Positions 33,805-62,638 of a DNA stretch of 64,000 nucleotides are shown here, piece after piece. Each line of letters begins with the position of its first letter. The stretch's first letter is position 1. Position numbers and translations under genes: made by a program. The stretch comes from Planctomycetota bacterium (lineage in GTDB: Bacteria > Planctomycetota > MHYJ01 > WSZJ01), in contig JBBTCT010000008.1 of assembly GCA_038060895.1 (NCBI GenBank), positions 1 to 64,000 on the forward strand, given 5' to 3'. A model generated the notes under the pieces. It searched no databases, was not told where the DNA came from, and saw only the letters and a program-made list of their open reading frames with translations.

Positions 33805-33837
33805 GTTGAAGGTCAGAGGTCGAAGGTCGAAGGTTCG
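33803..33837. repeat. AGGTCGA heptamer array x5
   Basis: aggttga aggtcag aggtcga aggtcga aggttcg. Confidence 0.8.
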
Positions 33838-33862
33838 CCCGGGACACCAACGTGGAGATTCC

Positions 33863-38714: not shown

Positions 38715-39602
38715 CTAGAACACCCCGGCCGTTCCCAGCTGCATCCATTTCGCGCTATGCGCCCCGCCCAGCCGCCCCTTCGCATCCACGCCGATGATCC
38801 CGCATTCGACGCCGTGCTTAAGCGCGTACTTCGCGGTCGCATCGAGCGCAGCCTGGCAAGGCAGCCGCTTCATGAGATCGACCGCGTGCCGGCCGAGGCA
38901 CAGGCGCATCACGCCCTCGCCGTGGCCGGTCATTGAGATCGCACCGTACCGGTTGGCGCACGTCCCGGCTCCCGGAATCGGCGAGTCGCCCACGCGCCCG
39001 GGGAGCTTCATCCAGATGCCGCCGGTACTGGTCGCAACCGCGAACCGGCCCTTTGCATCCATCGCGCACGCGCCGACCGTGTCGAACAGGCCGTAGGCCT
39101 TCTGCCACTTCGAGATCCTCTTCCAGAAGCGGAAATCGGGGCCGGTCTTTCCGCGGCGAAGTTCTTCCTTGAGCTGGTTCCAGACGGTGACGCGCTCGGG
39201 GGTGCGGGGGTCGTAGTCGGGGTGGCCCATGATGCGGGCGAAGCGCGTGGCGCCTTTGCCGACGAGGAGGTGGTGGTCGGTCTTTTCCATGACGGCGCGG
39301 GCGATGGCGATGGGGTACTGGGTGCGGCGGAGGCCGGCGACGGCGCCGATGCGGCCATCGTCGGTCATGAGGCAGGCGTCGAGTTCGCAGTCGCCTTCCA
39401 TGGTGAGGACGGCGCCGGTGGCGGCGTCGAAGATCGGGTGGTCTTCGAGGACGTTGACGGCGAGTTCGACCATGTCGACGGCGCTTCGGCCGCGCATCCC
39501 GGCCTGCGCCGCGCGGTCGAGCACGGACTGGCGCTCGCCGGTTGGGCCTGTGGGGCCGCGGCCGGCGCCGCCGTGGACGATGATCGACTTGGTGGAGCTC
39601 AT
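38715..39602 (-). CDS. Isoaspartyl peptidase/L-asparaginase (Ntn hydrolase), paralog 1
   Basis: VHGGAG, LEDHP.FDA, DTVGAC, ATSTGG, GRVGDSPIPGAG, TGHGE. Confidence 0.92.
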   Translation of the reverse strand: MSSTKSIIVHGGAGRGPTGPTGERQSVLDRAAQAGMRGRSAVDMVELAVNVLEDHPIFDAATGAVLTMEGDCELDACLMTDDGRIGAVAGLRRTQYPIAIARAVMEKTDHHLLVGKGATRFARIMGHPDYDPRTPERVTVWNQLKEELRRGKTGPDFRFWKRISKWQKAYGLFDTVGACAMDAKGRFAVATSTGGIWMKLPGRVGDSPIPGAGTCANRYGAISMTGHGEGVMRLCLGRHAVDLMKRLPCQAALDATAKYALKHGVECGIIGVDAKGRLGGAHSAKWMQLGTAGVF

Positions 39603-39666: not shown

Positions 39667-40566
39667 TCATGACTGGTTGGTGGGCATCCATTCGGCGTTT
39701 CTTGAAGACCCGGGACGGCCTCTCTTGTCGACGCCGATCAGGCCGGCTTCGACACCCTCCCGGCGCGCGAACGCGGTCGCGCGGTCGAGGGCTTTCTGGC
39801 AGGGGAGGGACTTCATCAGGTCGCAGGCGAATTTTGCGAGGCCCAGGCGGAGGATTCCTTCGCCGAATCCGGTTGCCGAAACAGCGCCGTATTCGCAGGC
39901 GTAGGTGCCGCCTCCCAGGACCGGCGAGTCGCCTACTCGCCCGGGCAGCTTGAGCCAGATCCCGCCCGTGGACGTCGCGACCGCCAGGCGGCCCTTTGCG
40001 TCGCACGCGACGGCGCCAACCGTCGAACGGTGGCCTCGCTCATCACGTGAGAGGTAGCGCTCGAGCCATGACCGCGTCCGCTTCCAGTAGCGATCCTCCG
40101 AGGCTTCACCGCCGTCACGAAGCCTCGCGATCAGCTCCTTCCAGCGCTTGCGCCGCGCGGTCGTCCGGGGGTCGTATACGGGGAAGCCGGCGTGGCGCGC
40201 GAATTTCGTCGCGCCTTCGCCGACGAGGAGGTGGTGGTCGGTCTCTTCCATGACGGCGCGAGCGACGGAGATGGGGTGGCGGACGCCCGTGATGCCGCCG
40301 ACCGCGCCGGCCTCCAGCTCGCTGGTCATCACGGCCGCGTCCATTTCGACCTGGCCCTCAAGCGTCAGCACGCTGCCGGTGCCCGCGTTGAAGAACGGGC
40401 TGTCCTCGAGGAAGCGCGCCGCGCGCTCGACCATGTCGATGGCGTTCTTGCCGCGCAGGCCCTCGGAAACGGCGCGCGCGAGCGCTTCGTCGCGGCCCTC
40501 GGGGAGAACTGCCGGACGCCGGCCGCAACCGCCGTGGACTAGAAGTGTTTTCCTGGGTGTGGGCAT
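39667..40566 (-). CDS. Isoaspartyl peptidase/L-asparaginase, paralog 2
   Basis: VHGG, FNAGTGS, STVGAVA, ATSTGG, GRVGDSP, TGFGE. Confidence 0.92.
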   Translation of the reverse strand: MPTPRKTLLVHGGCGRRPAVLPEGRDEALARAVSEGLRGKNAIDMVERAARFLEDSPFFNAGTGSVLTLEGQVEMDAAVMTSELEAGAVGGITGVRHPISVARAVMEETDHHLLVGEGATKFARHAGFPVYDPRTTARRKRWKELIARLRDGGEASEDRYWKRTRSWLERYLSRDERGHRSTVGAVACDAKGRLAVATSTGGIWLKLPGRVGDSPVLGGGTYACEYGAVSATGFGEGILRLGLAKFACDLMKSLPCQKALDRATAFARREGVEAGLIGVDKRGRPGSSRNAEWMPTNQS

Positions 40567-40636
40567 GGTGCGACGGGGAAGGGTAACTGGTGGGGGGCGG
40601 GGTGTCATCGGAGCGAAGGGGTAGGGCAAATGCAAC

Positions 40637-40737
40637 GACAACTCCAAATCCCAACTCCAACCCCAACTTCCAAAGAGGACCGGCTCCTGGAGGATGTCAT
40701 CTTGGGGTTTGAGTTGGGGTTGGGATTTGGAGTTGTC
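40637..40737. repeat. Inverted repeat built from CCAA(C/A)-type hexamers
   Basis: gacaactccaaatcccaac is the exact reverse complement of gttgggatttggagttgtc; arms about 38 bp. Confidence 0.88.
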
Positions 40738-49007: not shown

Positions 49008-50363
49008 CTAGAAGTCGATCTGAGCCCTGAAGATGAACATGTCAACGCCGTCCTCACGCGTTCCAGCGAGCACCAGCGACTCGGTGTGCGCTTCGCTCCG
49101 GTACTGCTCGTGAACGTACGCAACCGAGACCCGCGTGTGCATATTCGGGTACCAGTTCACTCCGATGGCGTACTCGTAAACCTCCTTCGCCGACGTGTCC
49201 CTGTTGAGAACCCCGTCGTCGAAGATGTCCCGGTCGAACCAGAGCTTGCTGAACCGGGCCGCGATTTCGATCGCTCCGACGCCTCCGCCGAACAACGGCT
49301 TGTTGGGACGGATGCGATCCCAGGTCTTCATTTCGCCGGTGAGGAGGACCGAAGCGCTGACGTAGTAGCTGTGAATGTTGGTGCGATTGTGATCTCCGGC
49401 GTTCAGGTCCGTGAAACGGTCGCTCGTGCGGAGCCACTCGGCCTTGAACGACGCCGGGCCGAAGAGCCACGCCAGCTCGGCCTGCAGCCGGTAACGGTTC
49501 TCGTCGAACTTGAACGAGGCCCCTGCACTGCCACGGTTCGCGAACGTCGTCGCCGTCATCGGGTCGCTGAAGGTGTAAGGAAGGACACCCGCCGCGACGT
49601 CGCGCCGGCCGGCGCTGCCGGAGACGGCGATGTGGAGATTCTTGATGAAGTCACTCTCCATCGTCGCGAACGGCCGGAGGTAGGCGCGCGCGATGATGTC
49701 CTTGTCGCTGTTCTCATCCGGGCCGTTGCGGCCGTTTCCGTTCGCCAGCATGATCTGGTAGCCAACGATTTTCTCGAAGGGCTCACCGAAGAGCATCAGG
49801 CCGACCTCGCGCGCCGGCACCAGCCGGTTTAGAACGCTGCGCTCCGGAAGGTCGATGAAGCGGGTCGTCGTCAGCTCTTCGAGGGACATGGGCGCCTTGA
49901 ACTGGCCGATGTGAAGCTTGGCGAAGTAAAAGCGCTCGAAACCCACGATGCCGTCGTCAAGGGCGACGCTGGAGCCCGTCGTGTTCAGCTGAACCTTGAA
50001 AGCGAAGTCCTTCCAGAGCTTGCCGCTCATCTCCAGCTTGACCTGCCGGAACGCAAACGTATCGACCTTCTGGCGCTCGTTCATGTTGCTGAAAAGGCGG
50101 GCGTGCCAGATGACCCGGCCGCCGATATGGCCCGAGAAGTTCCCGTCCTTGGACTTGAACTTGAAACCTTCATTGAAAAACACGTCGATCGCTTTCGATG
50201 CTGCCTCCGCCGCGGGCGACCCGGGCGCAGGCGCCTCCCCCTCATCTTCTTCCTTAAGCTTCAACTTCTCCTCGAGCGCTTTCACCCGCTCTTCCATCGT
50301 CTCTGCACCGGCGAAGCCGGCGAGGATCGCGAAGAGCCCCAGCGTTCTGGACAGACGCTTCAT
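49008..50363 (-). CDS. Phosphate-selective porin (OprO/OprP family)
   Basis: GQFKAPMSLEEL, ERS, AIEIAARFS, GVNWYPN, C-terminal RAQIDF; AGGAGG RBS; next to the pst operon. Confidence 0.9.
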   Translation of the reverse strand: MKRLSRTLGLFAILAGFAGAETMEERVKALEEKLKLKEEDEGEAPAPGSPAAEAASKAIDVFFNEGFKFKSKDGNFSGHIGGRVIWHARLFSNMNERQKVDTFAFRQVKLEMSGKLWKDFAFKVQLNTTGSSVALDDGIVGFERFYFAKLHIGQFKAPMSLEELTTTRFIDLPERSVLNRLVPAREVGLMLFGEPFEKIVGYQIMLANGNGRNGPDENSDKDIIARAYLRPFATMESDFIKNLHIAVSGSAGRRDVAAGVLPYTFSDPMTATTFANRGSAGASFKFDENRYRLQAELAWLFGPASFKAEWLRTSDRFTDLNAGDHNRTNIHSYYVSASVLLTGEMKTWDRIRPNKPLFGGGVGAIEIAARFSKLWFDRDIFDDGVLNRDTSAKEVYEYAIGVNWYPNMHTRVSVAYVHEQYRSEAHTESLVLAGTREDGVDMFIFRAQIDF

Positions 50364-50445
50364 CTTGCCTCCTGAGAAAGGGAACCCCGTTGGTGTCATG
50401 GCGCGGAAGGGTAGGAGGAGGAAGTTCAGGGTCCACAAACGCTTC

Positions 50446-50511
50446 TTTAAGAAGCGGTAAAGAATGCAGGCCGGTGCCGCGGGTTTGTCCGGGACTTCAC
50501 GGGGGCTTTAC
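50446..50511. promoter_or_regulatory. Pho-box-like 11-bp-period repeats between the porin and STAS genes
   Basis: Minus strand ctttac-N5-cttaaa (50446-50462) facing the porin; plus strand cttcac-N5-ctttac (50495-50511) facing the STAS gene. Confidence 0.4.
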
Positions 50512-50584
50512 GCGGCTCAAACGAGTGTTTCCGATAATTCGGGGGAGAGGGGGGGGCTCCGGCGAACACTTTCGGAGGCGAGCC

Positions 50585-50974
50585 ATGATGGGACTCACGA
50601 TCCGGACGGCGATTTTCGACGGCGGGCTTGCGTGCATTTCGTTGGATGGCGATCTCGACGGCCGGACTTCCGCAGCCCTGGAGAAAGTGGTTCTCGACGT
50701 GCTCGAACTCGGTCCGGTGCGACTGGCGTTCGACCTCGAGCGGCTGGTGCTGATGACGAGCGCCGGCGCAGGAGTCTTTGTCGGAGCTCTCGTCATGGCG
50801 CAGGAGCAGGGCGGGGCGCTGGCGCTTGTCCGGCCGGCCCCCTGTGTACAGCAGGTGATCGACGTGCTGGGCCTGGGCGCAATCCTTCCGGTGGCCGACA
50901 GCCTGACGGCCGCCGCCGCAAGGATCGAGTCCCTCTGCGGGCGCTCCCGGCGAGAGGTTGCCGGTACCGCGTAA
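50585..50974 (+). CDS. STAS-domain anti-sigma-factor antagonist
   Basis: LDGDLD, FDLERLVLMTSAG with the phosphorylatable Ser position, V.QVIDVLGL; GGAGG RBS. Confidence 0.85.
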   Translation: MMGLTIRTAIFDGGLACISLDGDLDGRTSAALEKVVLDVLELGPVRLAFDLERLVLMTSAGAGVFVGALVMAQEQGGALALVRPAPCVQQVIDVLGLGAILPVADSLTAAAARIESLCGRSRREVAGTA

Positions 50975-50982
50975 ACGCGTTG

Positions 50983-51660
50983 TTACGCTCCCGCCCGCTT
51001 GGCGAGCCCGCGGGTATGTCGCACGATCTCGCCTGTGACCAGGTAGATGGTGTCCTCTGCGATGTTCGTGGCCAGGTCGGCGATCCGCTCGAGTTCGCGG
51101 CCGATTCGATAGAGCTTGAGAGCCGCATCCACATGGGTCGGTCCCTGGCACATCGTGCGGCGCGCCTCCTCCGTGATTTCGGCGTCGAGCTTGTCGATGA
51201 CGAGATCGGCCGCCAGGACGGAGCGGGCCTCCTCGACGTCCTGCCGCCGGAGCGCGCGGATCCCGCGCGAAATCGCCTCCGTCACGCGGGCCGCCATCTC
51301 GCCGGCCTGGGGCGGAAGCGCGAAGGCGCGGTCCTCGAGAAGCGACAGCGTCAGGCGGGCCACATTGTTCCCGTGGTCCGCAATCCGCTCGAGGTCGTTG
51401 TTCACCTTGAGAACCGTGGTCAGGTACCGCAGGTCGCGAGCCACCGGCGCGTAGAGCGCAATCATCTTCAGGCACTCTTCCTCGATCCGTACTTCCGCCC
51501 GGTCGACGTCCCGGTCCATCTGCGACGCGCGGCGCGCCCGCTCGGCGTCGCCCGTGACCAGCGCGTGCACGCCGTCCTCGACGCAGCGCATCACCAGGTC
51601 CTCCTGGCGCGACAGGGCATCATTCAAGGCTTCAATTGCCTGTGCGAAGTGTCTGGACAT
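50983..51660 (-). CDS. phoU: Phosphate signalling protein PhoU
   Basis: PVARDLR, DLERIADH, ELERIADLATNIAE. Confidence 0.95.
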   Translation of the reverse strand: MSRHFAQAIEALNDALSRQEDLVMRCVEDGVHALVTGDAERARRASQMDRDVDRAEVRIEEECLKMIALYAPVARDLRYLTTVLKVNNDLERIADHGNNVARLTLSLLEDRAFALPPQAGEMAARVTEAISRGIRALRRQDVEEARSVLAADLVIDKLDAEITEEARRTMCQGPTHVDAALKLYRIGRELERIADLATNIAEDTIYLVTGEIVRHTRGLAKRAGA

Positions 51661-51720
51661 CGTCGTGCGTCTCCTCTCAGGAAAGGCGTTGGGTCCTTCG
51701 ATTGCGATTGGCCACAAACC

Positions 51721-51810
51721 TGGAGTTGGCAGTGGGTTGGAGGTCGTGGGTAGGAACAACCGCTTCCGGGTCTCGTTCCTGCCCCCTACCTCCTACCCCC
51801 TACCCACTGA
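51721..51810. repeat. Inverted heptamer-array element inside the pst operon
   Basis: cagtgggt..ggtaggaac versus gttcct..(cctacc)n..cccactg. Confidence 0.7.
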
Positions 51811-52581
51811 CTACCCGAACTTGCCCGAGACGTAGTCCTCCGTCTCGCGGCGCTTCGGCCGCTGGAAGATCTCCTCCGTCGGCCCCTCCTCGACGATGTC
51901 GCCCAGGAGGAAGAACGCGGTTCGGTCGCTGCAGCGCGCGGCCTGCTGCATGTTGTGCGTGACGATGACGATCGTGTACTGCTGGCGAAGCTCGCGGATC
52001 GTCTCTTCGATCTTGGCCGTCGAGATCGGGTCGAGGGCGCTGGCGGGCTCGTCCATCAGGATGATTTCAGGGTCGTTGGCGAGCGTGCGGGCGATGCAGA
52101 GGCGCTGCTGCTGTCCGCCGGACATGTCGATGGCGGATCGGTCGAGCCGGTCTTTCGCTTCGGTCCACATGTCCGCCTGCCGGAGCGCGCGCTCCAGGAT
52201 GCGCTCGAGGGCGTCCTTGTCGCGAAGTCCCGCCATGCGAGGCCCGAAGGTGACGTTTTCGCGGATCGACATGGGAAACGGGTTCGACTTCTGGAAGACC
52301 ATACCGACTTTTTTCCGCAAGGCCTCGATAGAGACGCGCGGGTCCGAGATGTCTTCGCCGTCGATGAGGATGCGGCCCTGCATGCGGAAGCTCTGGATGA
52401 CGTCGTTCATGCGGTTCAGGCAGCGCAGGAGAGTGGACTTGCCGCATCCGGAAGGGCCGATGAACGCGGTGACCTGGCGCGCGGGAATGGCGAGACTGAT
52501 GTCTTTGAGGGCGTGCTGATCCCCGTACCAGGCATCGAGGTTGTGGATTGCAATCGCGGTGGTTTCCGTAGCCATGATCAC
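51811..52581 (-). CDS. pstB: Phosphate ABC transporter ATP-binding protein
   Basis: [39 protein letters not shown]. Confidence 0.97.
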
Positions 52582-54182
52582 AGCGCGGAACCCTGGAAAC
52601 GCTTTCGGAGCCGGTTTCGGACGATGATGGCGACGAGATTGAGGCCGAGGACGAGGAAGAGGAGGACCATGGTGCTGGCGTAGGTCATGGGCTTGGCGGC
52701 CTCGACGTTGGGGGACTGCATGGAGACGTCGTAGATGTGGAACCCGAGGTGCGTGAACTTGCGGTCGAGGTGGAAGAACGGGAACGCGGAGTCGACGAGG
52801 GGCTGTGGGGCCAGCTTGACGGCGGCTCCGAGGACCATGAGCGGGGCGACCTCGCCCGCGCCGCGGCCGACGGCGAGGATCATGCCGGTGAGGATGCCGG
52901 GAAGCGCCTGGGGGAGGACGACGTTGCGAATGGTCTGCCAGCGCGTGGCGCCGAGGGCGAGGGCCCCGTCGCGATAGGCCTGCGGGACCGAGCGGAAGCC
53001 CTCGGTCGCGGCAACGATGACGACCGGGACTGTAAGCAGCGCCAGAGTAAGGGAGCCCCAGAGGATGCCGCCCGTTCCGAATGTCGGGTGACCCGTGCCC
53101 GGGAAAAACGACCGGTCAACGCCCGCGCCGATCGTGTAGACGAATAGTCCCAGGCCGAAGATGCCGAAGACGATCGAAGGCACGCCCGCGAGGTTGGCCA
53201 TGGCGAGACGCACCGCGCGAAGAAGCCAGCCCTCGCGGGCGTACTCGTTCAGGTACATCGCGGCCACGACTCCCAGGGGGACCGCGGCGATCGTCATGAC
53301 GATGACCAGAAAAAGCGTCCCCATGATGACGGGAAAGATGCCGCCCTCCGAGTTGGATTCGCGCGGATCCGTCGTCAGAAACGCCCACGCGCCCGAAAGG
53401 TAGTGTCCGATCTTCGAGAAGAACCCCATGCGGTTCGGTTGCCAGGCCCGCACGATGGAAATCGCGGAAATCGTCGCGGTCGATCCGTCCGCCTGGCGCC
53501 AGTCGATGGTGATGGCTTTACCGGCTTCTTCGAGAGACTTCCGCTTTTTTTCCAGAGAAGAAAGCAGCGCTGAGTCGCGAGCGCTGTTCATCTGGTCGCG
53601 CACCCCCTCGAGTTCCGCGAGCAGCGAAGAGCCGCGGGAGAGCGCTTCGTCGAGCGAAGCGGCGCCGTGAACTCCCGCGAAGTACCCGTAGAGCCGACCG
53701 TACTCCACGCGGTCCAGCGTCCACGCGTCCCCTGGTGTCGATTCCGATGCGACTTCAGGGTCGTCGATCCAGACGAAATCGTTCACGCCTGCGGTTTCGC
53801 GACGGCCGGAGTAAATCAGCCGGCGCTTCACCCCCGACGACTTCCCGGGCTCACGTCGCTCGCTGCGATCGCGGACTTCGCCGAGAATGACCGAGCCGTC
53901 CTTGCGACGGACCTCGACGGCGCTGGACGGCCAGAACTGGGCGAACCCCTCGACGAGCGTGATTCCGAGGATGAAAACGAGCATCACCGCCACGACGACC
54001 AGGCCTGCAGCCGTGGACCAGATCCAGCCCCGGCCCTGCGAGCGCCCGTCATGCCGGTAGACCGACTCCGGCGAGGGAGACGATTCCGCGGGTGCAGGCG
54101 GCGGATTCATCGGAGGCTCTTCGGGAGCGCGCTCCTTTGCAGGCGGCCGGATCGCTTCTTCGAGCACGCTAGATCCGCCCAT
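52578..54182 (-). CDS. pstA: Phosphate ABC transporter permease PstA (long form)
   Basis: [39 protein letters not shown]. Confidence 0.95.
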
Positions 54183-56424
54183 ATTTTCTCCTGAGCCGGT
54201 TCCCGACGATTTCGGCGACGGTGTTGAGGGAAGCGGTGAATGCGAAGAGGAGGAGGCCGGTGAGGAAGAGGACGCGGTAGAGGGAGCCGTTGACGGGGGC
54301 CTCCGGGATTTCGATGGCCATGGCGGCGGAGAGGGTGCGCATGCCGTTCCAGGGGGCGGGGTCGAGGATGGGGGTATTGCCGGCGGCCATGACGACGATC
54401 ATGGTTTCTCCCGCGGCGCGTCCCAGGCCGAGGATGATGGCGGCGAAGAGGCCGGAGGCGGCGGCGGGGAGGATGACGTGGCGGACGGTCTGCCACCGGG
54501 TGGCGCCGAGGGCCAGGGCGGCGCTGGTCATGGTGGCGGGAACGTTGGAGATGGCATCTTCGGCGATCGTGAATATGACGGGGATGACGGCGAAACCGAG
54601 AGCGATGCCGACGAGGAAGCCGTTACGGATGTCGTAGTGGACGTTGAGGGTGTCGAAGAGCCACTGGCGGAGGTCGCCGCCGAAGAAGGCGCGCTCGACG
54701 GGGGAGCCGAGTGTGGCGGCCAGCAAAGCGGTCAGGAGGAGGACGGCGACGACGCCGGCCAGCTCGATGCCGACCACGGGGTGGCGGTCCGGGCGGCGCG
54801 GAATGCGGCCGGTGACGAAGACGCCGCCCGCGAAGACGAGAGGGAGGAGAAGGCCGCCGACAAGGATGACGCAGAGGGCGCGTTCCACGACGGGCGCGAG
54901 CCAGAGGGCGGCGATCATGCCGACGACGACGCTGGGAATGCCGGCCATGAGCTCGATCGAGGGCTTTACCCAGGCGCGCAGTCCCGGCGGACCAAAGCGC
55001 GCGACGTAGATGGCCGCGGCCAGGGCGATCGGGACCGAGAAAATGAGCGCGTAGAGGGTGCCCTTGAGAGTCCCGGCGAAGAGGGGCCACAGCGAGTACT
55101 TGGGTTCTGAGTCCTGCGTGCCGGAACTGGACTGCCACACGAATTCCTTCCCGGCATAGCTCTCGTACCAGACGGGGGACAGCAGGGCGCTTGCGGAGAC
55201 GTCGGGGTGGGGATTGCGAAGCACCCACGAGCGGAGGCCGTCGGTCCACCCGGCAATCTCTTCTCCGGTTTCCCCGAACGCGACGCGCGCCACCGGCTGG
55301 GCGGCGTCCGGGGGTATCGTGAGACAGAGCTGCTCCGTCGTCGCGTAGAAGACGGCGATGCCGCCCGCAGCGTCGCCGATGGCGAAGCACTTGTTGCGGG
55401 AACTCACCGCGATCGTTCGCGCCGCGGCGGCAAGGCGCTTGAACGTGCGCGCCGGGACCATCTTGTTGCCACCGGGGCCGATCTTCACCGCGCCGTTCTT
55501 GGCGATGTTCTTGCCGTGGTCCCGGTCGATCACCACGACGCTTCCGCCCGCCGGGACCGCGTCGCCCAGCACCACGACCTCGGCGGGGCCCGAATTCGTC
55601 AGGGTGACATGCCGGGCCCTCATCCAGCCGGAGACGTCGCCGCGTTCGTCGGCGGCGATGAGCGTTTCATCGCCGATGAGGTACGCGAGGACCGTCCGCG
55701 GGGCGGGACCCGCGGGGAGCGTCTGCACCTTCCGGGGCTCGGAGACGTCGTCGACGTCCCAGATATCGACTTCGCCCGACTGCCGAGCGACCGCCAGGAT
55801 TTTCCCCGTACTTGAAATCGCGACGGCGCGGGCGTCCGTGGTTTCCAGGGGTGTTTCGGCCGTACCGGCCAGCCCCGCGGGCCCGCACACGGTGACGCCA
55901 CCGTCGCGGAGGATCGCGATCCGCGCATGCCCTTCATCGTCTCGCGTCGCGGAAATCTCGCAGGGCGCCGGTGCGGAAAGGGTCTGCTCGTCGAGAAGCG
56001 AGACGCCGATGTTGCCGTCCCGCTTCTTCTCAACGCGGACGAGCGCCAGGCGCCCGTCGGCGTACAGGATAGCGGTGGCCCGCGAAGTGCCCGCCTGGGC
56101 CGCGGCCACCGGCTTGCCCTTCTCGTATCCAGGGACGACGAGCGGCGCCGGACGACCGTCTTCTCCCGCCTTCCAGGTGCCCTCCCGGGTGACCCACCAG
56201 GGCTTTCCGACGCCCTCGATGTAGTCCAACGCCAGGCATCCACCCTGGTCGGCGATGTTCAAAGCCGGCTTTGCTGCCGCCGGCAGGAAAAGTGGAATTG
56301 AAACCGAGATGAGGAAGACGAGGATTCCAAGCACGCACGCCACGATCAGCATTCCCCCTCCGGGGATTACCTTCGCGGCAATCCGGTCAATGAAGACCGC
56401 CTTCAGATTGGGCTGGTGGGCCAT
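54169..56424 (-). CDS. pstC: Phosphate ABC transporter permease PstC with a periplasmic beta-propeller insert
   Basis: VWYESY...VWQSSS, KPSIELMAGIPSVV, GRAAGETMIV, EIPEAP. Confidence 0.93.
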   Translation of the reverse strand: MAHQPNLKAVFIDRIAAKVIPGGGMLIVACVLGILVFLISVSIPLFLPAAAKPALNIADQGGCLALDYIEGVGKPWWVTREGTWKAGEDGRPAPLVVPGYEKGKPVAAAQAGTSRATAILYADGRLALVRVEKKRDGNIGVSLLDEQTLSAPAPCEISATRDDEGHARIAILRDGGVTVCGPAGLAGTAETPLETTDARAVAISSTGKILAVARQSGEVDIWDVDDVSEPRKVQTLPAGPAPRTVLAYLIGDETLIAADERGDVSGWMRARHVTLTNSGPAEVVVLGDAVPAGGSVVVIDRDHGKNIAKNGAVKIGPGGNKMVPARTFKRLAAAARTIAVSSRNKCFAIGDAAGGIAVFYATTEQLCLTIPPDAAQPVARVAFGETGEEIAGWTDGLRSWVLRNPHPDVSASALLSPVWYESYAGKEFVWQSSSGTQDSEPKYSLWPLFAGTLKGTLYALIFSVPIALAAAIYVARFGPPGLRAWVKPSIELMAGIPSVVVGMIAALWLAPVVERALCVILVGGLLLPLVFAGGVFVTGRIPRRPDRHPVVGIELAGVVAVLLLTALLAATLGSPVERAFFGGDLRQWLFDTLNVHYDIRNGFLVGIALGFAVIPVIFTIAEDAISNVPATMTSAALALGATRWQTVRHVILPAAASGLFAAIILGLGRAAGETMIVVMAAGNTPILDPAPWNGMRTLSAAMAIEIPEAPVNGSLYRVLFLTGLLLFAFTASLNTVAEIVGNRLRRKYGRI

Positions 56425-56430
56425 GGGCGC

Positions 56431-56466
56431 AAAAGGCGCGGGGGCCGGGACAGTGTCCCGGCCCCC
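56431..56466 (-). terminator. Hairpin between pstS and pstC (stabiliser or partial terminator)
   Basis: gggggccgggaca-g-tgtcccggccccc, followed by gcgcctttt on the minus strand. Confidence 0.6.
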
Positions 56467-56474
56467 TGGATCGC

Positions 56475-57461
56475 CTACTTTGCGTTCAGCTTCTCCAGCT
56501 CCTTGGTCACCATCCCCGGAGTCATCGGCATGTACCCGTCCTTGATCACGATCTCCTGCCCTTCCTTCGACAGCAGGAACCTCACGAACTCGCCCACGAC
56601 CGGGTCAGCACCCTTCCCGGAAGCGACATCGACGTAAACCATGAGGAAGCGTGCCAGCGGGTACTTTCCCGACAGCGCGTTCTCGTAGGTCGGCTTGAAG
56701 ATCTTCGCCTGGAATGTCTTCGCGAGCGGAATCGCGCGGACGCCCGGCGTGAGGTAGCCGATCCCGCCGTAGCCGATCCCGTAGAGGTCCTCGGCAACTC
56801 CCTGCACCACGGCCGCCGTACCGGGCTGCTCCTTCACGGTGTTCTTGAAGTCGCCCTTGTAGAGGGCGTGCTCCTTGAAGAATCCGTACGTGCCGCTCGC
56901 GCTGTTACGGCCGTAGATGCTGATCGGCTTGTTTTCCCACTCTCCCGCCAGGCCCAGGTCGCCCCACTTTGAGATGTCGATGTGGTGGCCGCCCTTACGC
57001 GTCTTCGAGAAGATCGCGTCGATGAGCTCGAAGGTCAGATTCTGAAGCGGGTTGTCCTTGTGGACGAAGACCGCAAGGGCGTCGATCGCCACGTTCACGC
57101 CGGTCGGCTTGTAGCCCCACTTGCTTGCGACCGTGTCCATCTCCTCGGGCTTCATCGCACGGCTCATCGGGCCGACGTTCGCGGTCCGGCTGGCCAGGGC
57201 CGGGGGGGCGGTCGCCGAACCCTTGGCTTCAACCGTTACGTTCACCTCCGGGTAAACCTTCTTGAACCCCTCGCCCCAGAGCGTGTCCAGGTTCGCGCAG
57301 GAGTCCGACCCGATGATGTTGATGTTCCCCTTGATCCCATCGACCTTCGCGTACTCCTTGATCCCCGGATCCACCGTCAGCGCGGTGTCGGCCACGACCG
57401 CCACCGTGAGGGCCGCCGAGCCGATCAGGGACGCCAGCCAGAAACGACCGTTGAAGTTCAT
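56475..57461 (-). CDS. pstS: Phosphate ABC transporter substrate-binding protein
   Basis: GSDS, EAKGSATAPPAL, MSR, YGRNSASGT, YPLAR. Confidence 0.95.
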   Translation of the reverse strand: MNFNGRFWLASLIGSAALTVAVVADTALTVDPGIKEYAKVDGIKGNINIIGSDSCANLDTLWGEGFKKVYPEVNVTVEAKGSATAPPALASRTANVGPMSRAMKPEEMDTVASKWGYKPTGVNVAIDALAVFVHKDNPLQNLTFELIDAIFSKTRKGGHHIDISKWGDLGLAGEWENKPISIYGRNSASGTYGFFKEHALYKGDFKNTVKEQPGTAAVVQGVAEDLYGIGYGGIGYLTPGVRAIPLAKTFQAKIFKPTYENALSGKYPLARFLMVYVDVASGKGADPVVGEFVRFLLSKEGQEIVIKDGYMPMTPGMVTKELEKLNAK

Positions 57462-57626: not shown

Positions 57627-59528
57627 ATGTCTTCTTCCTGGCAGGACCATCTCCGTGCACGGACGGTTTCCGCCGCGCAGGCTGTCGCCTGCGTGAAGCG
57701 CGGCTCGCGCGTTTTCGTGGGATCGGGGTGTGCGGAGCCGGTTCCGCTGGTTGAGGCGCTGGCGGCGCGGCCCGACGTCGAGGACGTCGAAGTGCTGCAC
57801 ATCATGACGGTGGGCCATGCTCCCTACGCAAAAGCGGGGCAGACGAGGCGCTTCCGCGCGAACGCCTTCTTCATCGGCTCGAACGTCCGCGACGCGGTCG
57901 CCCAGGGGACGGCGGACTTCACGCCCATTTTCCTGTCGGAGATTCCGGGGCTGTTCCGGTCGCGGCGAATCCCGCTGGACGTCGCGCTGGTCTGCACGAC
58001 GCCGCCCGACCGGCACGGGTTCGTTTCGCTGGGAGTGTCGGTGGACGTGGTGAAGTCTGCGGTGGAGAGTGCGGACGTCGTCGTCGCCGAGCTGAACCCG
58101 ACGATGCCGAGGACGCACGGCGCGAGTTTCGTGCACGTTGAGGACATCGATTTCTTCGTCCAGGGCACGGCGCCCATCCTGGAGCGGCCGATGGAAGCGC
58201 CCGACAAGGTGTCGCTCGCGATCGGGGCGTTCTGCGCGAGCCTGATCGACCATGGTGCGACGATCCAGATGGGAATCGGCGGCATCCCGAACGCGGTCCT
58301 TGAGAATCTCGGCAACAAGATCGACCTCGGCGTACACACGGAGATGCTCGCAGACGGCGCAATCCCGCTGATCGAGGCCGGCGTCATCAACGGCCGCCGA
58401 AAAACTCTTCATCCACGCAAGGCCGTGACGTCCTTCTGCATGGGCTCGCGCCGCCTCTACGACTTCGTTGACGACAATCCCTTCTTCGAGTTCCTGCCGA
58501 ACGAATTCGTCAACGACCCTTTCGTCATCGCGAAGAACGACCGCATGGTCTCGATCAACTCCGCGCTCCAGATCGACCTCACCGGCCAGGTCTGCGCGGA
58601 CTCCATCGGGACCCGCTTCTACTCCGGCATCGGCGGCCAGGTGGATTTCATCCGCGGCGCCGCCCGGTCGGCCGGAGGGCGCAGCATCATCGCCATCGAG
58701 TCCACGGCGAAGCAGGGGACTCTGTCGCGGATCGTCCCCGTGCTGGCGGAGGGAGCGGGCGTCGTCACGACGCGCGGCGACGTCCATACCGTCGTGACGG
58801 AGTACGGCATTGCGGAATTGAAGGGACGCACGGTGCGCGAACGTGCGCTGTCCCTGATCAGTGTTTCGCATCCGGACTTCCGCGGGGAACTGCTCGCGGC
58901 GGCAAAGAAGCGCCACATCGTTGCGGTCGACCAGGTGCCGTGGCCTGAGAAGGGCCGGCCGTACCCGGTCGAGCTGGAAGCACGGGAATCGTTTGGCGGC
59001 GCGGAGGTGTTCTTCAGGCCTCTCCGCCCCGACGACGAGCGGCTCCTGCGCGCGTTCTTCTACTCGCACTCGCCCGAGACGGTGTACCAGCGCTACGGCG
59101 CTTCGCTCAAGTCGCTCACCCCTCAGCAGATCCAGGACCAGTGCGCACTCGATTATGACTCCGAGATGGCGATCGCCGGCTTCGTCCGTGACGGCGAGGG
59201 TGAGCGCCTCATCGCCCTCGGCCGCTACGAACTCGAAAGGTCTTCCGGATTCGCCGACCTCAACTTCGCCGTCTCCGAGGACTTCCAGGGCCGCGGCGTC
59301 GGCACCTGGCTCTTCAAGCGCCTTGCGCGCGTCGCCCGCGAACGCGGCATCGGCGGCTTCACGGGAGTCGTGCTCGCCGGAAACGCGCGGATGATGGGGA
59401 TCTTCCACAAGAGCGGCGAACCAGTGGAGTCGAGGCTCGAGGACGGAAGGTACCGCGTAGTCGTCCGGTTCGGGGGTCACCCAACAGGAGATCGCGTTCA
59501 TGCAACCATCGTTTCGGGGAGCCCGTGA
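57627..59528 (+). CDS. Acetyl-CoA hydrolase/CoA-transferase fused to a C-terminal GNAT domain
   Basis: QMGIGGIP, GVHTEM, SGIGGQVDF, VVTEYGIA; C-terminal FQGRGVG...N..M..IF. Confidence 0.92.
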   Translation: MSSSWQDHLRARTVSAAQAVACVKRGSRVFVGSGCAEPVPLVEALAARPDVEDVEVLHIMTVGHAPYAKAGQTRRFRANAFFIGSNVRDAVAQGTADFTPIFLSEIPGLFRSRRIPLDVALVCTTPPDRHGFVSLGVSVDVVKSAVESADVVVAELNPTMPRTHGASFVHVEDIDFFVQGTAPILERPMEAPDKVSLAIGAFCASLIDHGATIQMGIGGIPNAVLENLGNKIDLGVHTEMLADGAIPLIEAGVINGRRKTLHPRKAVTSFCMGSRRLYDFVDDNPFFEFLPNEFVNDPFVIAKNDRMVSINSALQIDLTGQVCADSIGTRFYSGIGGQVDFIRGAARSAGGRSIIAIESTAKQGTLSRIVPVLAEGAGVVTTRGDVHTVVTEYGIAELKGRTVRERALSLISVSHPDFRGELLAAAKKRHIVAVDQVPWPEKGRPYPVELEARESFGGAEVFFRPLRPDDERLLRAFFYSHSPETVYQRYGASLKSLTPQQIQDQCALDYDSEMAIAGFVRDGEGERLIALGRYELERSSGFADLNFAVSEDFQGRGVGTWLFKRLARVARERGIGGFTGVVLAGNARMMGIFHKSGEPVESRLEDGRYRVVVRFGGHPTGDRVHATIVSGSP

Positions 59529-60378
59529 CGTCCTTTCAGTAACGTTTCTCCTTCTGCTGATAACCGGCTCCGCCTCCGCCCAGCTTGTCACGGAAAACGC
59601 CGGCACCGTTTCTCCCGAGACGCCGCTCGCCCGGCTCGTCATCAATGCGGCGCAGTGGCGGCACGTGGACGAGTTCTCGGCGGTCGGAGAGTTTCACTAC
59701 GGATTCCACCCCCGCTTCGAGGGCTCCGTGTCCGTTCCGTTCATCTACCGGTACTTCGAGATCGGCAATAACGATGACGAAGAGATCGCAGGCTTCGGAG
59801 ACGTCGCACTGAAGGGCAAGGTCGTGGTGCACAAGGAGGACGGCGTCATGACCTCCATGCGGACCGCGGTGCTGGCGGGGATCGAATTCCCGACGGGGAA
59901 GTGGGATGACCGGATCGGCGACGCAACGGAACCTTACGCGCGTAAGTTGCAACTCGGAAGCGGCACGTTCGATTTTACGCTCGGCCTGGCGTTCACCTAC
60001 ATCAACGACCGGCATCGCATCGCCATCGACGCGCTCGGCCGGGCGAGCACCTCACGGGACAACGTGAGCCCGGGTCCCGTGCTCCGGGTCGACCTGGCGT
60101 ACTGGTTCCGGCTGTTCCCGGCAGTTTTCGAGCCGGGAGAATCGGGGATGGAGCTCCGGCTCGTCGTGGATGCCTGGTACCTCCACCGGTACCACACGCG
60201 CGGGGAAAAGCTGGACGACAGCGGCGACCAGGTCTGGCTGGCGCCCGGACTGCAGTTTTACGCGACGAACTGGCTGCTTCTTGAAGGGAACGCAGCGTAC
60301 GCGCTGATGGACACGACGGACGACGAGTATGGCCGCGCGCGCTGGAGCGCTTTCGTGGCGGTCAAGATCCTGTTCTGA
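59500..60378 (+). CDS. Outer-membrane beta-barrel protein (transporter/MetA-pathway-like)
   Basis: AGGAG RBS, signal peptide, GFGDV.L.GK, PTG...LQLGSGTFD, alternating beta-strands, terminal Phe. Confidence 0.8.
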   Translation: MQPSFRGARDVLSVTFLLLLITGSASAQLVTENAGTVSPETPLARLVINAAQWRHVDEFSAVGEFHYGFHPRFEGSVSVPFIYRYFEIGNNDDEEIAGFGDVALKGKVVVHKEDGVMTSMRTAVLAGIEFPTGKWDDRIGDATEPYARKLQLGSGTFDFTLGLAFTYINDRHRIAIDALGRASTSRDNVSPGPVLRVDLAYWFRLFPAVFEPGESGMELRLVVDAWYLHRYHTRGEKLDDSGDQVWLAPGLQFYATNWLLLEGNAAYALMDTTDDEYGRARWSAFVAVKILF

Positions 60379-60407
60379 GCCCTGCGGCCACTCTTTAGGA
60401 TGCACCC

Positions 60408-60872
60408 ATGCGATACCTGCCCTGGTTCATCCTCACCCTCGCTGGCTGCGCCGTGGCGCCGCCTGCCGGACCTGCGCCCACCGAGGGCATTCTCAGCGTC
60501 ATCGTAGACATCTCCGGAATGGAGTGAAGCCCCTGAGTCAAGAGCGTCACGGACGCTCTGGGACGCCTGGATGGCGTCGAAAACGTCTCTGTCGATCTGC
60601 AGAACGGCAAGGCGACCTTGCGTCCCCGGCTCTCTGCCCGGATCCAGGCCGGCGAAGTTTTCGAGGCACTCAGCCACGCGGGATATCGCGGTGACGCGGT
60701 GACATTCGAAGTCACGGGCGAGGTGAAGCGTTCCGCTTCCGCGGGCTTCATTCTTCCGGGCGACACCGAGCCGTGGTTGTCGCTGCCTGAGCCCGCACCG
60801 CCGGACGGGCCTGCGCGGCTCAAGGTGCGGATTCTGCCCGACGGAAAGGTCGAACTTCTCGACGGTTTGTAA
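60408..60872 (+). CDS. HMA (MerP/CopZ-like) lipoprotein with two in-frame TGA codons at the metal site; candidate UxxU selenoprotein, 154 aa
   Basis: AGGA RBS; MRYLPWFILTLAGC lipobox; VDISGME*SP*VKSVTDALGRLDGVENVSVDLQNGKATL with TGA at 60525 and 60534 at the CxxC positions; the frame continues to TAA 60872. Confidence 0.85.
60537..60578 (+). promoter_or_regulatory. Two candidate bacterial SECIS hairpins
   Basis: AGAGCGTC-ACG-GACGCTCT (60541-60559) and GACGCC-TGGAT-GGCGTC (60562-60578) directly 3' of the UGA codons. Confidence 0.55.
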
Positions 60873-60875
60873 AGG

Positions 60876-61232
60876 CTAGGCGGGGAATCGAGTCGAGTAG
60901 GCCGCGCGAGCCTCGGCCATGAAGGCCTGGAGCGTCAGCAGCTTCAGAATGCCGCCCCTGGCCCGCACGGCGCCCGACGCAGCCGCCTGCGCGACGGGCA
61001 GTCGCCCCGAGAGGATTTCGTGCGCCGCCGCGCAAGTCAGCGTGAGCTCAACCGCCGGCTCCGGATGCTCTTCCGCCGATACCGAAAACGGGTCGAGCGA
61101 CAGGTCCATCACGACGAATGAAACCGGCGCAAGCAGCCGGAACTGCAGCACGGCGCCGGACTTCTTCGCCGCCGCGCACGCTTCCGGGCTCGTCCGCATT
61201 CCCTCGAACAGCGCGATGAACTCCGCGCTCAC
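60876..61232 (-). CDS. SCP2 sterol/lipid-binding domain protein
   Basis: LSGRLPVAQAAASGAVRARGG..KLL SCP2 signature; overlaps the cysS stop. Confidence 0.8.
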   Translation of the reverse strand: MSAEFIALFEGMRTSPEACAAAKKSGAVLQFRLLAPVSFVVMDLSLDPFSVSAEEHPEPAVELTLTCAAAHEILSGRLPVAQAAASGAVRARGGILKLLTLQAFMAEARAAYSTRFPA

Positions 61233-62638
61233 TTGCGCGCCCGCCGGGGGCGCGTGCCGCGCGGCGAGTCTTCCACCAGGACGCCTTTCGACTCGAGCTC
61301 GCTGCGGAGGCGGTCGGACTCGTCCCAGTTCTTGGAAGCGCGCGCCGCGGCGCGGGCCTCGAGGAGTTTCTGTTCCGCGGCGCTGAAGACGTCCGGCGGC
61401 GCGCTGCCGATGTTGAACACCGTGTCGAGCTTGTCGAACGCGTCGCGCACGTACGCCGCTGCCTGAGGGTTCGGGTCGAGCCGGTTGATCTCGCGGGCGA
61501 GCATGAAGAGCGCGGCTGTCGCTTCGGAGACGTTGAGGTCGTCGTCCATGCCCTTCTCGAAATCCTTCCGCGCCTTCTCGACGATCGGCTTCACCATTTC
61601 CAGCGTCGCCGCGCCGTGCGCGTCGGAGAGGCGCCGGCGGAACTCGATCAGCTTGTCCACCGAGCCCTGCGCGACCTGCATGCTTTCCCAGCTGAAGTTC
61701 ATCTGCTGGCGGTAGTGCGAGGTCGCGAGCCCCCAGCGGAGCGCGGAGGCCGAGACCCCGTGCTTGAAGACGTCCTCGACGGTGTAGAAATTCCCCTTCG
61801 ACTTCGACATTTTTTCGCCGTCAACGAGCAGGAAGCGGGCGTGCATCCACATCTTGCAGAAGAGTTTGCCGTTGGCGGCCTCGCTCTGCGCGATTTCGCA
61901 TTCGTGGTGCGGGAAGATGTTGTCCTCGCCGCCGGTGTGGATGTCGAGCGTCTCGCCGAGGTATTTCATGGACATGGCGGAGCACTCGATGTGCCAGCCG
62001 GGGAACCCTTTCCCCCACGGCGAGTCCCACTGCATGACGTGCTTGGGGTCGTGCTTCCAGAGAGCGAAGTCGCGAGGGTCTTTCTTGTCGGGGTGGGGCT
62101 CGATGCGCGCGCCGGCTTCGAGGTCCTCGGTGACGTTGCCGCTGAGCTTCCCGTAGTTCGGGAACGTCGCGACCGAGAAGTACACGTTGTGCCCGACGAC
62201 GTACGCATTTCCCTTCTCGATGAGCTTCTCGATGATCGCGATCATCTCAGGGATGTGATCGGTCGCCTTGGGGTGCGCTAGCGCGTCCGCAAAGCCGAGC
62301 TGCTTGCGCAGGTCGAGGAAGATCCCCCCGTAGTGTGCTGCGATCTGCCAGGGGTCTTTCTTCTCTTTCAGCGCCTGCAGCTCCATCTTGTCCTCGCCCT
62401 CGTCCGCATCGTGCGTGATGTGCCCGACGTCGGTGATGTTCATCACCTGCCGGACGTCGAACCCGCGGTAGTCGAGGTAGCGGCGCAGCACGTCCGCGAA
62501 CACGAACGACCGGAAATTCCCGATGTGCGGGTACGAGTACACCGTCGGCCCGCAGTTGTACATGCGGACCACGCCCTTCTCTTGCGGCGCAAAGTCTTCC
62601 TTCTTCTTCGTCAGCGAGTTGTAGAACTGAATGGCCAA
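61229..62638 (-). CDS. cysS: Cysteine--tRNA ligase
   Basis: CGPTVY..HIGN, GFPGWHIECSAM, KMSKS; TTG start. Confidence 0.97.
   Translation of the reverse strand: MAIQFYNSLTKKKEDFAPQEKGVVRMYNCGPTVYSYPHIGNFRSFVFADVLRRYLDYRGFDVRQVMNITDVGHITHDADEGEDKMELQALKEKKDPWQIAAHYGGIFLDLRKQLGFADALAHPKATDHIPEMIAIIEKLIEKGNAYVVGHNVYFSVATFPNYGKLSGNVTEDLEAGARIEPHPDKKDPRDFALWKHDPKHVMQWDSPWGKGFPGWHIECSAMSMKYLGETLDIHTGGEDNIFPHHECEIAQSEAANGKLFCKMWMHARFLLVDGEKMSKSKGNFYTVEDVFKHGVSASALRWGLATSHYRQQMNFSWESMQVAQGSVDKLIEFRRRLSDAHGAATLEMVKPIVEKARKDFEKGMDDDLNVSEATAALFMLAREINRLDPNPQAAAYVRDAFDKLDTVFNIGSAPPDVFSAAEQKLLEARAAARASKNWDESDRLRSELESKGVLVEDSPRGTRPRRARK

Follow-up and report, generated by a model that had tools for sequence, protein, structure and literature searches.

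A barrel protein and a predicted double-selenocysteine HMA lipoprotein encoded side by side: a possible new envelope device of two genes for handling copper-like metals

The window analysed here, a 64-kb stretch of DNA, carries two closely spaced genes on its forward strand. The upstream gene (59500..60378, +, by ORF call; stop codon TGA at 60376-60378) encodes a beta-barrel protein of 292 aa of the COG4313/Phenol_MetA_deg type, and the downstream gene (60408..60872, +; stop codon TAA at 60870-60872) encodes an HMA selenoprotein of the lipoprotein type, 154 aa long when its in-frame TGA codons are read as selenocysteine (Sec, U). Under translation table 11 the HMA region yields just an 84-aa ORF (60618..60872). 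The intergenic gap (60379..60407, +) is 29 nt long and includes an AGGA sequence at 60397-60400, 7 nt before the ATG. The original prediction had placed the barrel stop 29 nt before the HMA start on the same strand, with no obvious terminator between the genes, and both statements hold: the ORF coordinates agree, and a simple terminator scan of the region 59200-61300 finds no terminator-like site in the gap, the two sites that it reports (1.3 expected) lying outside it. The barrel and HMA genes are probably co-transcribed. An antisense ORF of 142 aa (60395..60823) was dismissed as an artefact of the high GC content.

The match of the barrel protein to the Pfam family PF13557 (Phenol_MetA_deg) is marginal (E 3.9e-5; 24.3 bits vs a gathering cut-off of 22). 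Its AF2 model (pLDDT 85.7, 13 strand elements) finds chains of the polypeptide transporter FapF as its top Foldseek matches (E 4e-11, TM 0.62-0.74) and also matches Pput2725 (4rl8_C; E 6.4e-8, TM 0.71/0.77). Searched against PDB sequences, the barrel profile found weak matches only (FapF, E 0.11). Judged by the model, the protein is a 12-stranded outer-membrane protein of the COG4313/FapF type resembling Pput2725. Its 42 homologues come for the most part from Planctomycetota, and a precomputed Pfam label is attached to seven of them. The best-conserved stretch comprises residues 27-42 (59578..59625, +), right after the predicted signal peptide, where A27, Q28, E32, N33, A34, G35, S38, P39, E40 and P42 are invariant or at least 90% conserved; residues 21-40 are modelled at pLDDT 36-54 in the AF2 monomer. 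In Pput2725 the N-terminal ~14 residues sit in the lumen, according to the part of the structural report available (PMC4493636), and the conserved N-terminal segment of our barrel, a candidate lumen plug or gate, probably has such a function. No Met, His or Cys marking a soft-metal path is present among the invariant barrel residues.

The downstream protein begins with a predicted signal peptide and lipobox, L-A-G-C, with the lipid-bearing position at Cys14 (60408..60449, +), followed by a Pro/Ala-rich tether. We take L-A-G-C after the hydrophobic stretch to be a lipobox on a by-eye reading against the lipobox consensus; read in the same way across the 12 family members (the window and the related loci L001-L011 described below), the box is canonical in nine, has a Cys in a non-canonical context in two (L006 and L008) and lacks the Cys in L007. 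The HMA (ferredoxin-like) domain occupies residues 33-93 (60504..60686, +) and is recognised both by Pfam (PF00403; 49.2 bits vs a gathering threshold of 24.8, E 6.9e-13) and by Foldseek. The AF2 model of the protein (pLDDT 88.9) consists of the HMA fold and an extra sheet, the beta-alpha-beta-beta-alpha-beta order being made up of strand 27-36, helix 41-52, strands 57-63 and 68-73, helix 81-90 and a strand starting at residue 94; its HMA part aligns with CopZ, MerP and ATP7B domains at a target-normalised TM of 0.79-0.88 and an rmsd of 1.2-2.3 over 66-71 columns. The ligand loop reads G-M-E-U-S-P-U, with Sec codons where the motif G-M-x-C-x-x-C has Cys.

The extra beta-rich C-terminal domain noticed in the sequence at the outset is borne out by the AF2 model, which places four strands (94-108, 112-115, 134-142 and 148-151) beyond the HMA fold. 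This domain of ~60 aa (60687..60869, +) is family-specific, conserved in 11 of the 12 members and shortened in L007. It has no Pfam match at E up to 10 and no fold match in Foldseek, where only the HMA part of the protein aligned. A likeness to the SOD copper chaperone was rejected on alignments at rmsd 8-16, as were the atlas leads, an unnamed cluster at 0.92 and CYTH at 0.86-0.89, which fell under the meaningful level.

To stay open, the HMA frame requires both TGAs to be read through, the first (60525..60527, +) as Sec40 at the first ligand position of G-M-x-C-x-x-C and the second (60534..60536, +) as Sec43 at the second. In HMA profiles both columns correspond to the ligand Cys. TGA stands at the first position in 12 of 12 sequences and at the second in 10, being replaced by TGC in L007 and TGT in L011; the motif in the 11 relatives is UxxU in nine and UxxC in two. 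In 7 of the 12 sequences the same triplet, only a short way upstream, acts as the ordinary stop of the barrel gene. Downstream of the ligand codons lie two hairpins, which are candidate SECIS elements for Sec40 (hairpin 1; 60541..60559, +; 8-bp stem, 3-nt loop) and Sec43 (hairpin 2; 60561..60579, +; stem of 5-7 bp, 6 bp in the window, loop U-G-G-A-U). Hairpin 1 is present in all 12 sequences at -10.6 to -13.2 kcal/mol, with its loop 21 nt past the first TGA and compensatory changes in two pairs; hairpin 2, likewise present in all 12, has -7.9 to -12.8 kcal/mol, a loop 31 nt past the second TGA with G at its position 2 in every sequence, and compensatory changes in three pairs. Across the two hairpins the share of paired cells is 93.3%, and 5 of the 15 pairs have changed on both sides; the covariation score was reached by 1 of 500 shuffles, and slid controls were 33-48% paired.

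The published description of bSECIS elements, in the portion of PMC13188914 at hand, calls for a stem of 4-16 bp, a loop of 3-9 nt with G in loop positions 1-2, a distance of 16-37 nt from the UGA and an energy of -7.5 kcal/mol or lower. Relative to UGA2, hairpin 2 falls within all of these limits in the 10 sequences that have this codon. Hairpin 1 fits UGA1 in spacing, stem and energy in all 12 sequences and in the G rule in nine, its loop having no G in positions 1-2 in the window, L004 and L009. The hairpins overlie conserved peptide motifs, so that part of their conservation is coding. The 91-nt region around the TGAs folds no better than shuffles (z = -0.22); in GC-rich DNA this means that raw stability is not evidence, and the case for the hairpins is made by conservation and covariation. 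L007 and L011, with one TGA each, still keep both hairpins, which weakens the idea that each hairpin serves one UGA. Searches of the whole 64-kb window gave no Rfam match at the gathering threshold and no tRNA by ARAGORN, and selA, selB, selC and selD were not seen within it. The selenocysteine reading proposed earlier is supported by the in-frame TGAs at Cys positions (the first in 12 of 12), by the conservation of the protein sequence on both sides of the TGAs in the window and the 11 relatives, and by the conserved hairpins downstream. The two adjacent UGAs would then be decoded as Sec with the help of the two tandem hairpins.

The relatives were found by a barrel-based genome scan through one N-terminal barrel motif, barrels without this motif lying outside the sample. 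The scan yielded 11 loci, ten in MAGs of Planctomycetota and one in a MAG of Burkholderiales, the barrel identity spanning 34-81%. At every one of them the same HMA gene lies 9-69 nt downstream on the same strand and has TGA in place of the first ligand Cys. A CoA-transferase/GNAT gene and cysS flank the pair only in the window and in L001-L004. In L001-L004 nearly all flanking genes were judged by likeness to those of the window, three ORFs being scanned. No flanking ORF family of L005-L011 is shared with the window. The small ORFs that precede the barrel gene in distant loci do not resemble one another by blastp (E up to 1) and have no significant Pfam family. The pair alone persists while its neighbours change. 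The co-location in relatives by which the original prediction was to be checked is thus found in 11 of 11 loci amid differing surroundings, and because it recurs in this way the arrangement is more than chance.

All 20-odd public database entries of this family that we encountered are 5'-truncated, the recognised relatives (P0003, P0004, P0053, P0077 and P0143, as well as P0155, P0167, P0198-P0208 and probably P0210) starting immediately behind the second TGA position or further on. The exhaustive whole-protein representative search was dominated by multi-HMA ATPases, family members being 5 of the 150 matches listed, and no full-length Cys form of the family occurs among the matches listed (3, 150 and 15). 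The HMA family is systematically mis-annotated, and it appears to exist only with selenocysteine.

The window itself has no metal gene by Pfam (49 ORFs, of which 43 represent the window at large and six the vicinity of the pair), and the earlier statement that merA, merT, merR and a P-type ATPase are missing near the pair stands. Among the seven distant loci, four have metal genes within 6 kb of the pair. L007 has a P1B (CopA-type) ATPase (TIGR01525, 587.7 bits), an OEP gene and a multicopper oxidase with HMBD, the pair following the oxidase gene with one 149-aa ORF between them. L008 has CusBA-like genes, one encoding an HlyD_D23 protein with HMBD that resembles CusB and another ACR_tran, and in L009 a YHS protein is encoded near the pair. 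In L010 a MerR-family regulator with three Cys lies directly upstream; its best model is TIGR02051 MerR at 137.3 bits, under the model cut-off of 150.85, with CueR at 107.5. Three of the four contexts (L007, L008 and L009) are copper-type. The scan of the 12 neighbourhoods turned up no merA, merB, merT or hgcAB, and no inner-membrane partner is conserved across the loci. The original prediction had offered trafficking of soft metals or of selenium. The soft-metal half gains support because the relatives L007-L010 adjoin genes of copper or mercury type; nothing points to the selenium half.

On balance we favour the view that the pair is a two-gene, probably co-transcribed envelope module for soft metals, with Cu(I) the most likely substrate and Ag(I) or Hg(II) possible ones. 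The gene pair, its in-frame TGAs, the hairpins, the folds and the metal genes beside the relatives are observed; within this scheme we infer where the lipoprotein resides, that it contacts the barrel, which metal is bound and in which direction it is moved. The lipoprotein would be held on its short Pro/Ala tether, probably on the side of the outer membrane that faces the periplasm. Its HMA domain would bind the metal between two selenolates (UxxU) and not thiolates, and the family-specific C-terminal beta domain is a likely docking surface. Such a diselenolate chaperone may capture periplasmic metal with very high affinity and exchange it with the barrel, which would give the pair an outer-membrane role analogous to that of PcoB with PcoC or CusC with CusF in copper systems. 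As to the purpose, we lean towards removal or sequestration, that is defence, over acquisition.

The barrel could instead be a dedicated polypeptide pore like FapF that delivers the HMA lipoprotein to the cell surface or passes its tether through, so that the selenoprotein would be a surface-exposed metal trap and not a chaperone of the periplasm. The FapF chains at the head of the structural matches speak for this, as do the resemblance of the COG4313 structure to post-cleavage autotransporter barrels, mentioned in the available text of PMC4493636, and the strict 1:1 pairing with a small secreted protein (12 of 12), which fits a transporter and its cargo. We nevertheless regard this role as unlikely: the small-molecule channel Pput2725 matches equally well by TM, no other fap-like genes occur in the window or in the neighbourhoods of the loci, and the plain signal peptide of L007, without Cys, indicates that the lipid anchor is not essential. 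Its most elaborate version, a private export pore for a surface-displayed double-Sec HMA lipoprotein with tandem SECIS elements each serving one UGA, seems improbable to us; if true, soft metals would be trapped outside the cell by a new kind of defence at the outer membrane, and two Sec codons decoded at such close range would be unusual for bacteria. There is also a small chance that what the pair deals with is a soft element in lipophilic or organic form (such as methylmercury, neutral Hg complexes or an organoselenium or organocopper compound), with the COG4313 channel in its customary role for hydrophobic molecules and the diselenolate as the acceptor. [quoted passage not shown]

Redox proteins with motifs of the UxxC type form the majority of the selenoproteins predicted in bacteria (PMC13188914 and PMC9312934, in their available sections), and UxxU could likewise be a diselenide redox centre in place of a metal site, the protein being a periplasmic oxidoreductase or selenium carrier on an HMA scaffold. 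We find this very doubtful, since the fold is that of HMA and not thioredoxin-like, the Sec residues occupy canonical metal-ligand positions and the relatives are surrounded by metal genes, not redox genes. It is hardly credible, finally, that the two genes adjoin each other with no shared role, or that stop codons have turned the HMA gene into a pseudogene. The short ORF left by table 11 and the uniformly truncated public gene calls for the relatives would agree with a pseudogene, but the TGA of the first ligand codon is conserved across 12 genomes and that of the second in 10 of 12, the peptide is conserved on both sides of the TGAs, the hairpins co-vary, and the adjacency is kept in 12 of 12 cases despite changed surroundings.

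If the pair is the soft-metal module that we favour, it bears on the handling of copper, silver and mercury ions at the outer membrane, a less understood step of bacterial metal homeostasis. It would amount to a minimal system of two components in which selenium provides an intrinsic chemical handle, and its conservation extends from Planctomycetota to one MAG of Burkholderiales; it would link the COG4313 channels, hitherto tied to hydrophobic organics, to metals, and it offers a natural test case for the decoding of two UGA codons six bases apart.

Among known metallochaperones, the HMA protein shares with MerP and the CopZ/CusF-type proteins the small HMA domain with two ligands in G-M-x-C-x-x-C, and its structural matches include 1osd (MerP) and 2qif and 6ff2 (CopZ). 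MerP is periplasmic, and proteins of the MerP/CopZ type bind Hg(II) or Cu(I). The window protein differs from them in its predicted lipid anchor, its Sec ligands, its extra domain and the lack of adjoining merT/merA, and it scores under the cut-off of all the curated models concerned (MerP, TIGR02052, 25.5 vs 92.55; CopZ, 39-46 vs 85-95). It does not belong to a mer operon either, there being no mer genes in the window and a MerR-like regulator in L010 only. As in PcoB/PcoC and CopB/CopC of copper-resistance operons, an outer-membrane barrel is encoded together with a small protein, known there and predicted here to be periplasmic and copper-binding, and the order in L007, where the pair follows a multicopper oxidase gene, matches the gene order pcoA-pcoB-pcoC. 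The likeness is confined to function and position, and there is no sequence relationship: neither of our proteins matches CopB or CopC (Pfam, NCBIfam), and here the barrel is of the COG4313 type, the chaperone of the HMA type and the ligands are selenium. The direction of PcoB itself is disputed between import (PMC9210255) and efflux (PMC12509749) in what is available of these two sources.

The barrel resembles the COG4313 channels (Pput2725, TcpY, SphA) and FapF in its 12 strands, its length (~270-320 aa in this group) and the N-terminal segment before strand 1. FapF acts in amyloid secretion and its likeness to the window barrel concerns the barrel fold only, no fap operon or amyloid subunit genes being found in the window or the loci. 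In the available part of PMC4493636 the link drawn for the known COG4313 channels is with hydrophobic organic molecules and not with metals, and among the publications listed we found no COG4313/MetA-pathway channel with a metallochaperone partner or a copper link, nor anything on a selenocysteine HMA protein associated with the outer membrane or on a Planctomycetes metal-binding selenoprotein of this kind. The replacement of both ligand Cys of an HMA domain by Sec is shared with the UxxU family (NCBIfam NF041115), catalogued with 2 Sec as a 'putative mercuric reductase' in the accessible text of PMC13188914 and PMC9312934. The window protein is not a member of this family, scoring 33.7 bits on the equivalog model NF041115 UxxU_metal_bind vs a cut-off of 95; that model has 74 positions and a single domain, to which our protein adds the lipoprotein signal, the tether and the C-terminal domain. 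Proteins of the window type are always paired with a barrel, whereas a partner barrel of the NF041115 family was not found described in the portions of the literature available. UxxU HMA selenoproteins are already catalogued, and the present protein is set apart from them by the pairing with a barrel and the extra architecture.

The two genes lie on the forward strand of the window (G+C 65.5%), which its protein matches assign to a Planctomycetota MAG, and the coordinates and 29-nt spacing given for them by the original prediction proved correct. The barrel ORF (59500-60378, 292 aa) stops at a TGA, and the HMA ORF runs from the ATG at 60408 to the TAA at 60870-60872, being open only when the TGA codons at 60525-60527 (UGA1) and 60534-60536 (UGA2) are read through; under translation table 11 the sole ORF remaining in this region is one of 84 aa (60618-60872). 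The gap contains an AGGA 7 nt 5' of the HMA ATG and shows no terminator-like site in a simple scan, in line with the earlier remark that no obvious terminator separates the genes. Within one probable operon TGA serves as the barrel stop (60376-60378) and, about 150 nt further on, twice as an apparent sense codon. The gene 5' of the barrel (57627-59528, forward strand), conserved at this place in the closest relatives only, encodes an acetyl-CoA hydrolase/CoA-transferase (both domains) fused to a C-terminal Pat-like GNAT acetyltransferase, and its last 29 nt overlap the beginning of the barrel gene.

The pair was sought in one genome per species with a profile from 42 aligned barrel homologues. 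The scan relied on a single N-terminal barrel peptide pattern (window 59578-59625), so that the sample consists of barrels with that motif; it matched 151 stretches, 11 of which encode a barrel relative (34-81% identity; ten Planctomycetota MAGs and one Burkholderiales MAG). In all 11 loci the barrel gene is followed on its own strand, after a gap of 9-69 nt, by an HMA gene whose first ligand codon is an in-frame TGA; the motif is UxxU in nine and UxxC in two (L007 and L011). The co-location in relatives by which the pairing was to be checked is thus borne out in every locus found with this motif. An all-against-all ORF comparison shows that the CoA-transferase/GNAT gene on the upstream side and cysS on the downstream side are common to the window and its four close relatives (L001-L004) only, while the seven distant loci (L005-L011) have the pair alone in common and no other neighbouring ORF; the two genes have thus stayed together in changing surroundings.

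The hydrophobic N-terminus of the 154-aa HMA protein ends in L-A-G-C, which we take to be the lipobox of a putative lipoprotein signal, and continues into a Pro/Ala-rich tether. In the HMA domain that follows (Pfam E 6.9e-13) both ligand positions are TGA codons, giving G-M-E-U-S-P-U. The AF2 model (17 sequences, pLDDT 88.9) predicts an HMA fold and then further strands at residues 94-108, 112-115, 134-142 and 148-151, which belong to a C-terminal domain of about 60 aa. Foldseek matched the HMA part alone, to CopZ, MerP and ATP7B domains; for the C-terminal domain Pfam returned nothing at E up to 10 and an Atlas search gave no credible lead.

Reading of the TGAs as selenocysteine is favoured by their exact coincidence with the Cys ligands of the HMA motif and by conservation of the peptide both before and after them in each of the 12 sequences (the window and its 11 relatives). 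Seven of the 12 barrel genes themselves end in TGA, a few bases 5' of the HMA gene, so the host organisms do not generally read this codon as sense. The recognisable family members in protein collections all start just past the second TGA position or later (P0003, P0004, P0053, P0077, P0143, P0155, P0167, P0198-P0208 and probably P0210), the manner in which gene callers truncate selenoproteins. No full-length Cys form was present among the matches listed in three protein searches, two of them word-based and the third comprising the best 150 of 2477 matches. Neither sel genes nor any tRNA were found within the 64-kb window.

Two hairpins lie 3' of the second TGA on the forward strand, at 60541-60559 and 60561-60579. 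Across the 12 sequences standard pairs fill 93.3% of the hairpin pair cells, falling to 33-48% when the partner is slid by 1-3 columns; 5 of the 15 pairs show changes on both sides, some of them joining a non-synonymous change on one side to a synonymous one on the other, and the covariation score was equalled by one of 500 column shuffles. Folded alone, each hairpin reaches -7.9 to -13.2 kcal/mol in 12/12. The bacterial SECIS model is described as a stem of 4-16 bp with a loop of 3-9 nt placed 16-37 nt from the UGA, a G in the first two loop positions and an energy of -7.5 kcal/mol or lower (PMC13188914). The loop of hairpin 1 lies 21 nt after UGA1 and only 12 nt after UGA2, that of hairpin 2 31 nt after UGA2 and 40 nt after UGA1; the latter has G at loop position 2 in every sequence, and the former satisfies the G rule in 9 of 12. 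Compared with the model, these distances and loops suggest one hairpin per UGA, against which stand the retention of both hairpins in the two UxxC genes and their position over conserved peptide motifs. On the side against the selenocysteine reading stand the lack of any Rfam match and the stability of the 91-nt TGA region, which does not exceed that of its shuffles (z = -0.22).

Pfam analysis of 43 window ORFs and six near the pair detected no metal genes, in keeping with the remark of the original prediction that no merA, merT, merR or P-type ATPase is nearby; the families found are those of phosphate transport, cysS, ispF, peptidases and TPR proteins, which give the pair no functional context. 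The phosphate-uptake cluster (49011-57461, reverse strand) comprises a phosphate-selective porin (49011-50438), pstB, pstS and two very long permease genes (534 and 751 aa), the longer with an N-terminal extension weakly matching a beta-propeller. Elsewhere in the window two giant paralogues adjoin on the forward strand (29932-33801, 1290 aa; 33806-37705, 1300 aa), with TPR repeats and DUF3857, to which the first adds a transglutaminase core, and two Asparaginase_2 genes of isoaspartyl peptidase type stand in tandem on the reverse strand (38718-39602 and 39670-40647).

The distant relatives have a different kind of neighbourhood. One strand of L007 has genes for a P1B-type ATPase (TIGR01525, 587.7 bits; copper subfamily TIGR01511, 546.4 bits), for an outer-membrane efflux protein and for a multicopper oxidase that includes a heavy-metal-binding domain (HMBD), then a Cys-rich ORF, the pair itself and a DUF2891 gene. 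In L008 an RND pump fragment and a CusB-like adaptor containing an HMBD are encoded about 2 kb upstream on the opposite strand, and in L009 a YHS-domain protein about 4.4 kb downstream. Directly upstream of the barrel in L010 (3-545, forward strand) is a MerR-family regulator whose best model is Hg-type MerR (137.3 bits, below the cut-off of 150.85; CueR 107.5); of its three Cys, presumably metal ligands, one precedes the long helix and two form a C-x8-C close to the C-terminus, and the regulator is a candidate sensor for the metal handled by the pair. The Kelch/galactose-oxidase-like protein of L006 was counted as an ambiguous context. Short ORFs whose products would have a hydrophobic N-terminus and densely clustered Cys (CCC...CC, CC-x-H) adjoin the barrel in four of the seven distant loci (L005:5443-5628(+), L007:5515-5961(+), L008:5263-5604(-), L011:5503-5907(+)), and L006 has a 47-aa Cys-rich ORF without signal peptide (984-1124, reverse strand); the window has no counterpart. 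These ORFs might encode a third component that binds metal, or they might be artefacts of a wrong reading frame in GC-rich DNA.

Since four of the seven independent contexts carry soft-metal genes, mostly for copper defence, we read the pair as a putative envelope module for Cu(I)-like metals, in which a tethered diselenolate chaperone would work together with an outer-membrane channel; the neighbouring genes in relatives make us lean towards metal defence as its role. Adjacency by chance, or an HMA pseudogene, is strongly disfavoured by the conservation data. Less probably, the UxxU site, placed at the ligand positions of an HMA domain, could be a redox centre.

The barrel passes the Pfam Phenol_MetA_deg (COG4313) gathering score only just (24.3 vs 22 bits) and matches no NCBIfam model; the AF2 model (42 homologues, pLDDT 85.7) has 13 predicted strand elements and in structure comes closest to the FapF polypeptide transporter (E 4e-11) and to the COG4313 channel Pput2725 (4rl8, TM 0.71/0.77). 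By analogy with FapF, the barrel might, as a rival reading, export its HMA partner to the cell surface. The peptide most conserved in the family, residues 27-42 (59578-59625, forward strand) immediately after the signal peptide in the 42-homologue alignment, is also where the confidence of the monomer model is lowest. The first ~14 residues of Pput2725 are described as occupying the lumen (PMC4493636). Two points count against a metal channel: Met, His and Cys are absent among the invariant residues of that alignment, and the COG4313 members so far known are tied, by the account in PMC4493636, to hydrophobic organics. A lipophilic organometal would be a less probable alternative substrate to Cu(I)-like ions.

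If the pair is an envelope module for such ions, it may work in the way that PcoB does with PcoC, or CusC with CusF. A single 149-aa ORF separates the pair in L007 from the oxidase gene 5' of it, a placement much like that of pcoB and pcoC in pco operons. PcoB is assigned to import in one source (PMC9210255) and, contrary to that view, to efflux in another (PMC12509749). The HMA protein falls outside the UxxU equivalog NF041115 (33.7 vs 95 bits), to which it adds a lipoprotein signal, a tether, an extra domain and a barrel partner (11/11 scanned loci), and none of the CopZ, MerP and MerTP models gives it a score that reaches the cut-off. Our literature search found no report joining a COG4313 barrel with a metallochaperone or selenoprotein, an uncommented listing in a catalogue supplement being possible. 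Both the chemistry, with Sec in an HMA site, and the logic of a barrel with a periplasmic metal binder are already known; what appears to be undescribed is their combination, along with the tandem hairpins, the C-terminal domain and the apparent lack of Cys forms.
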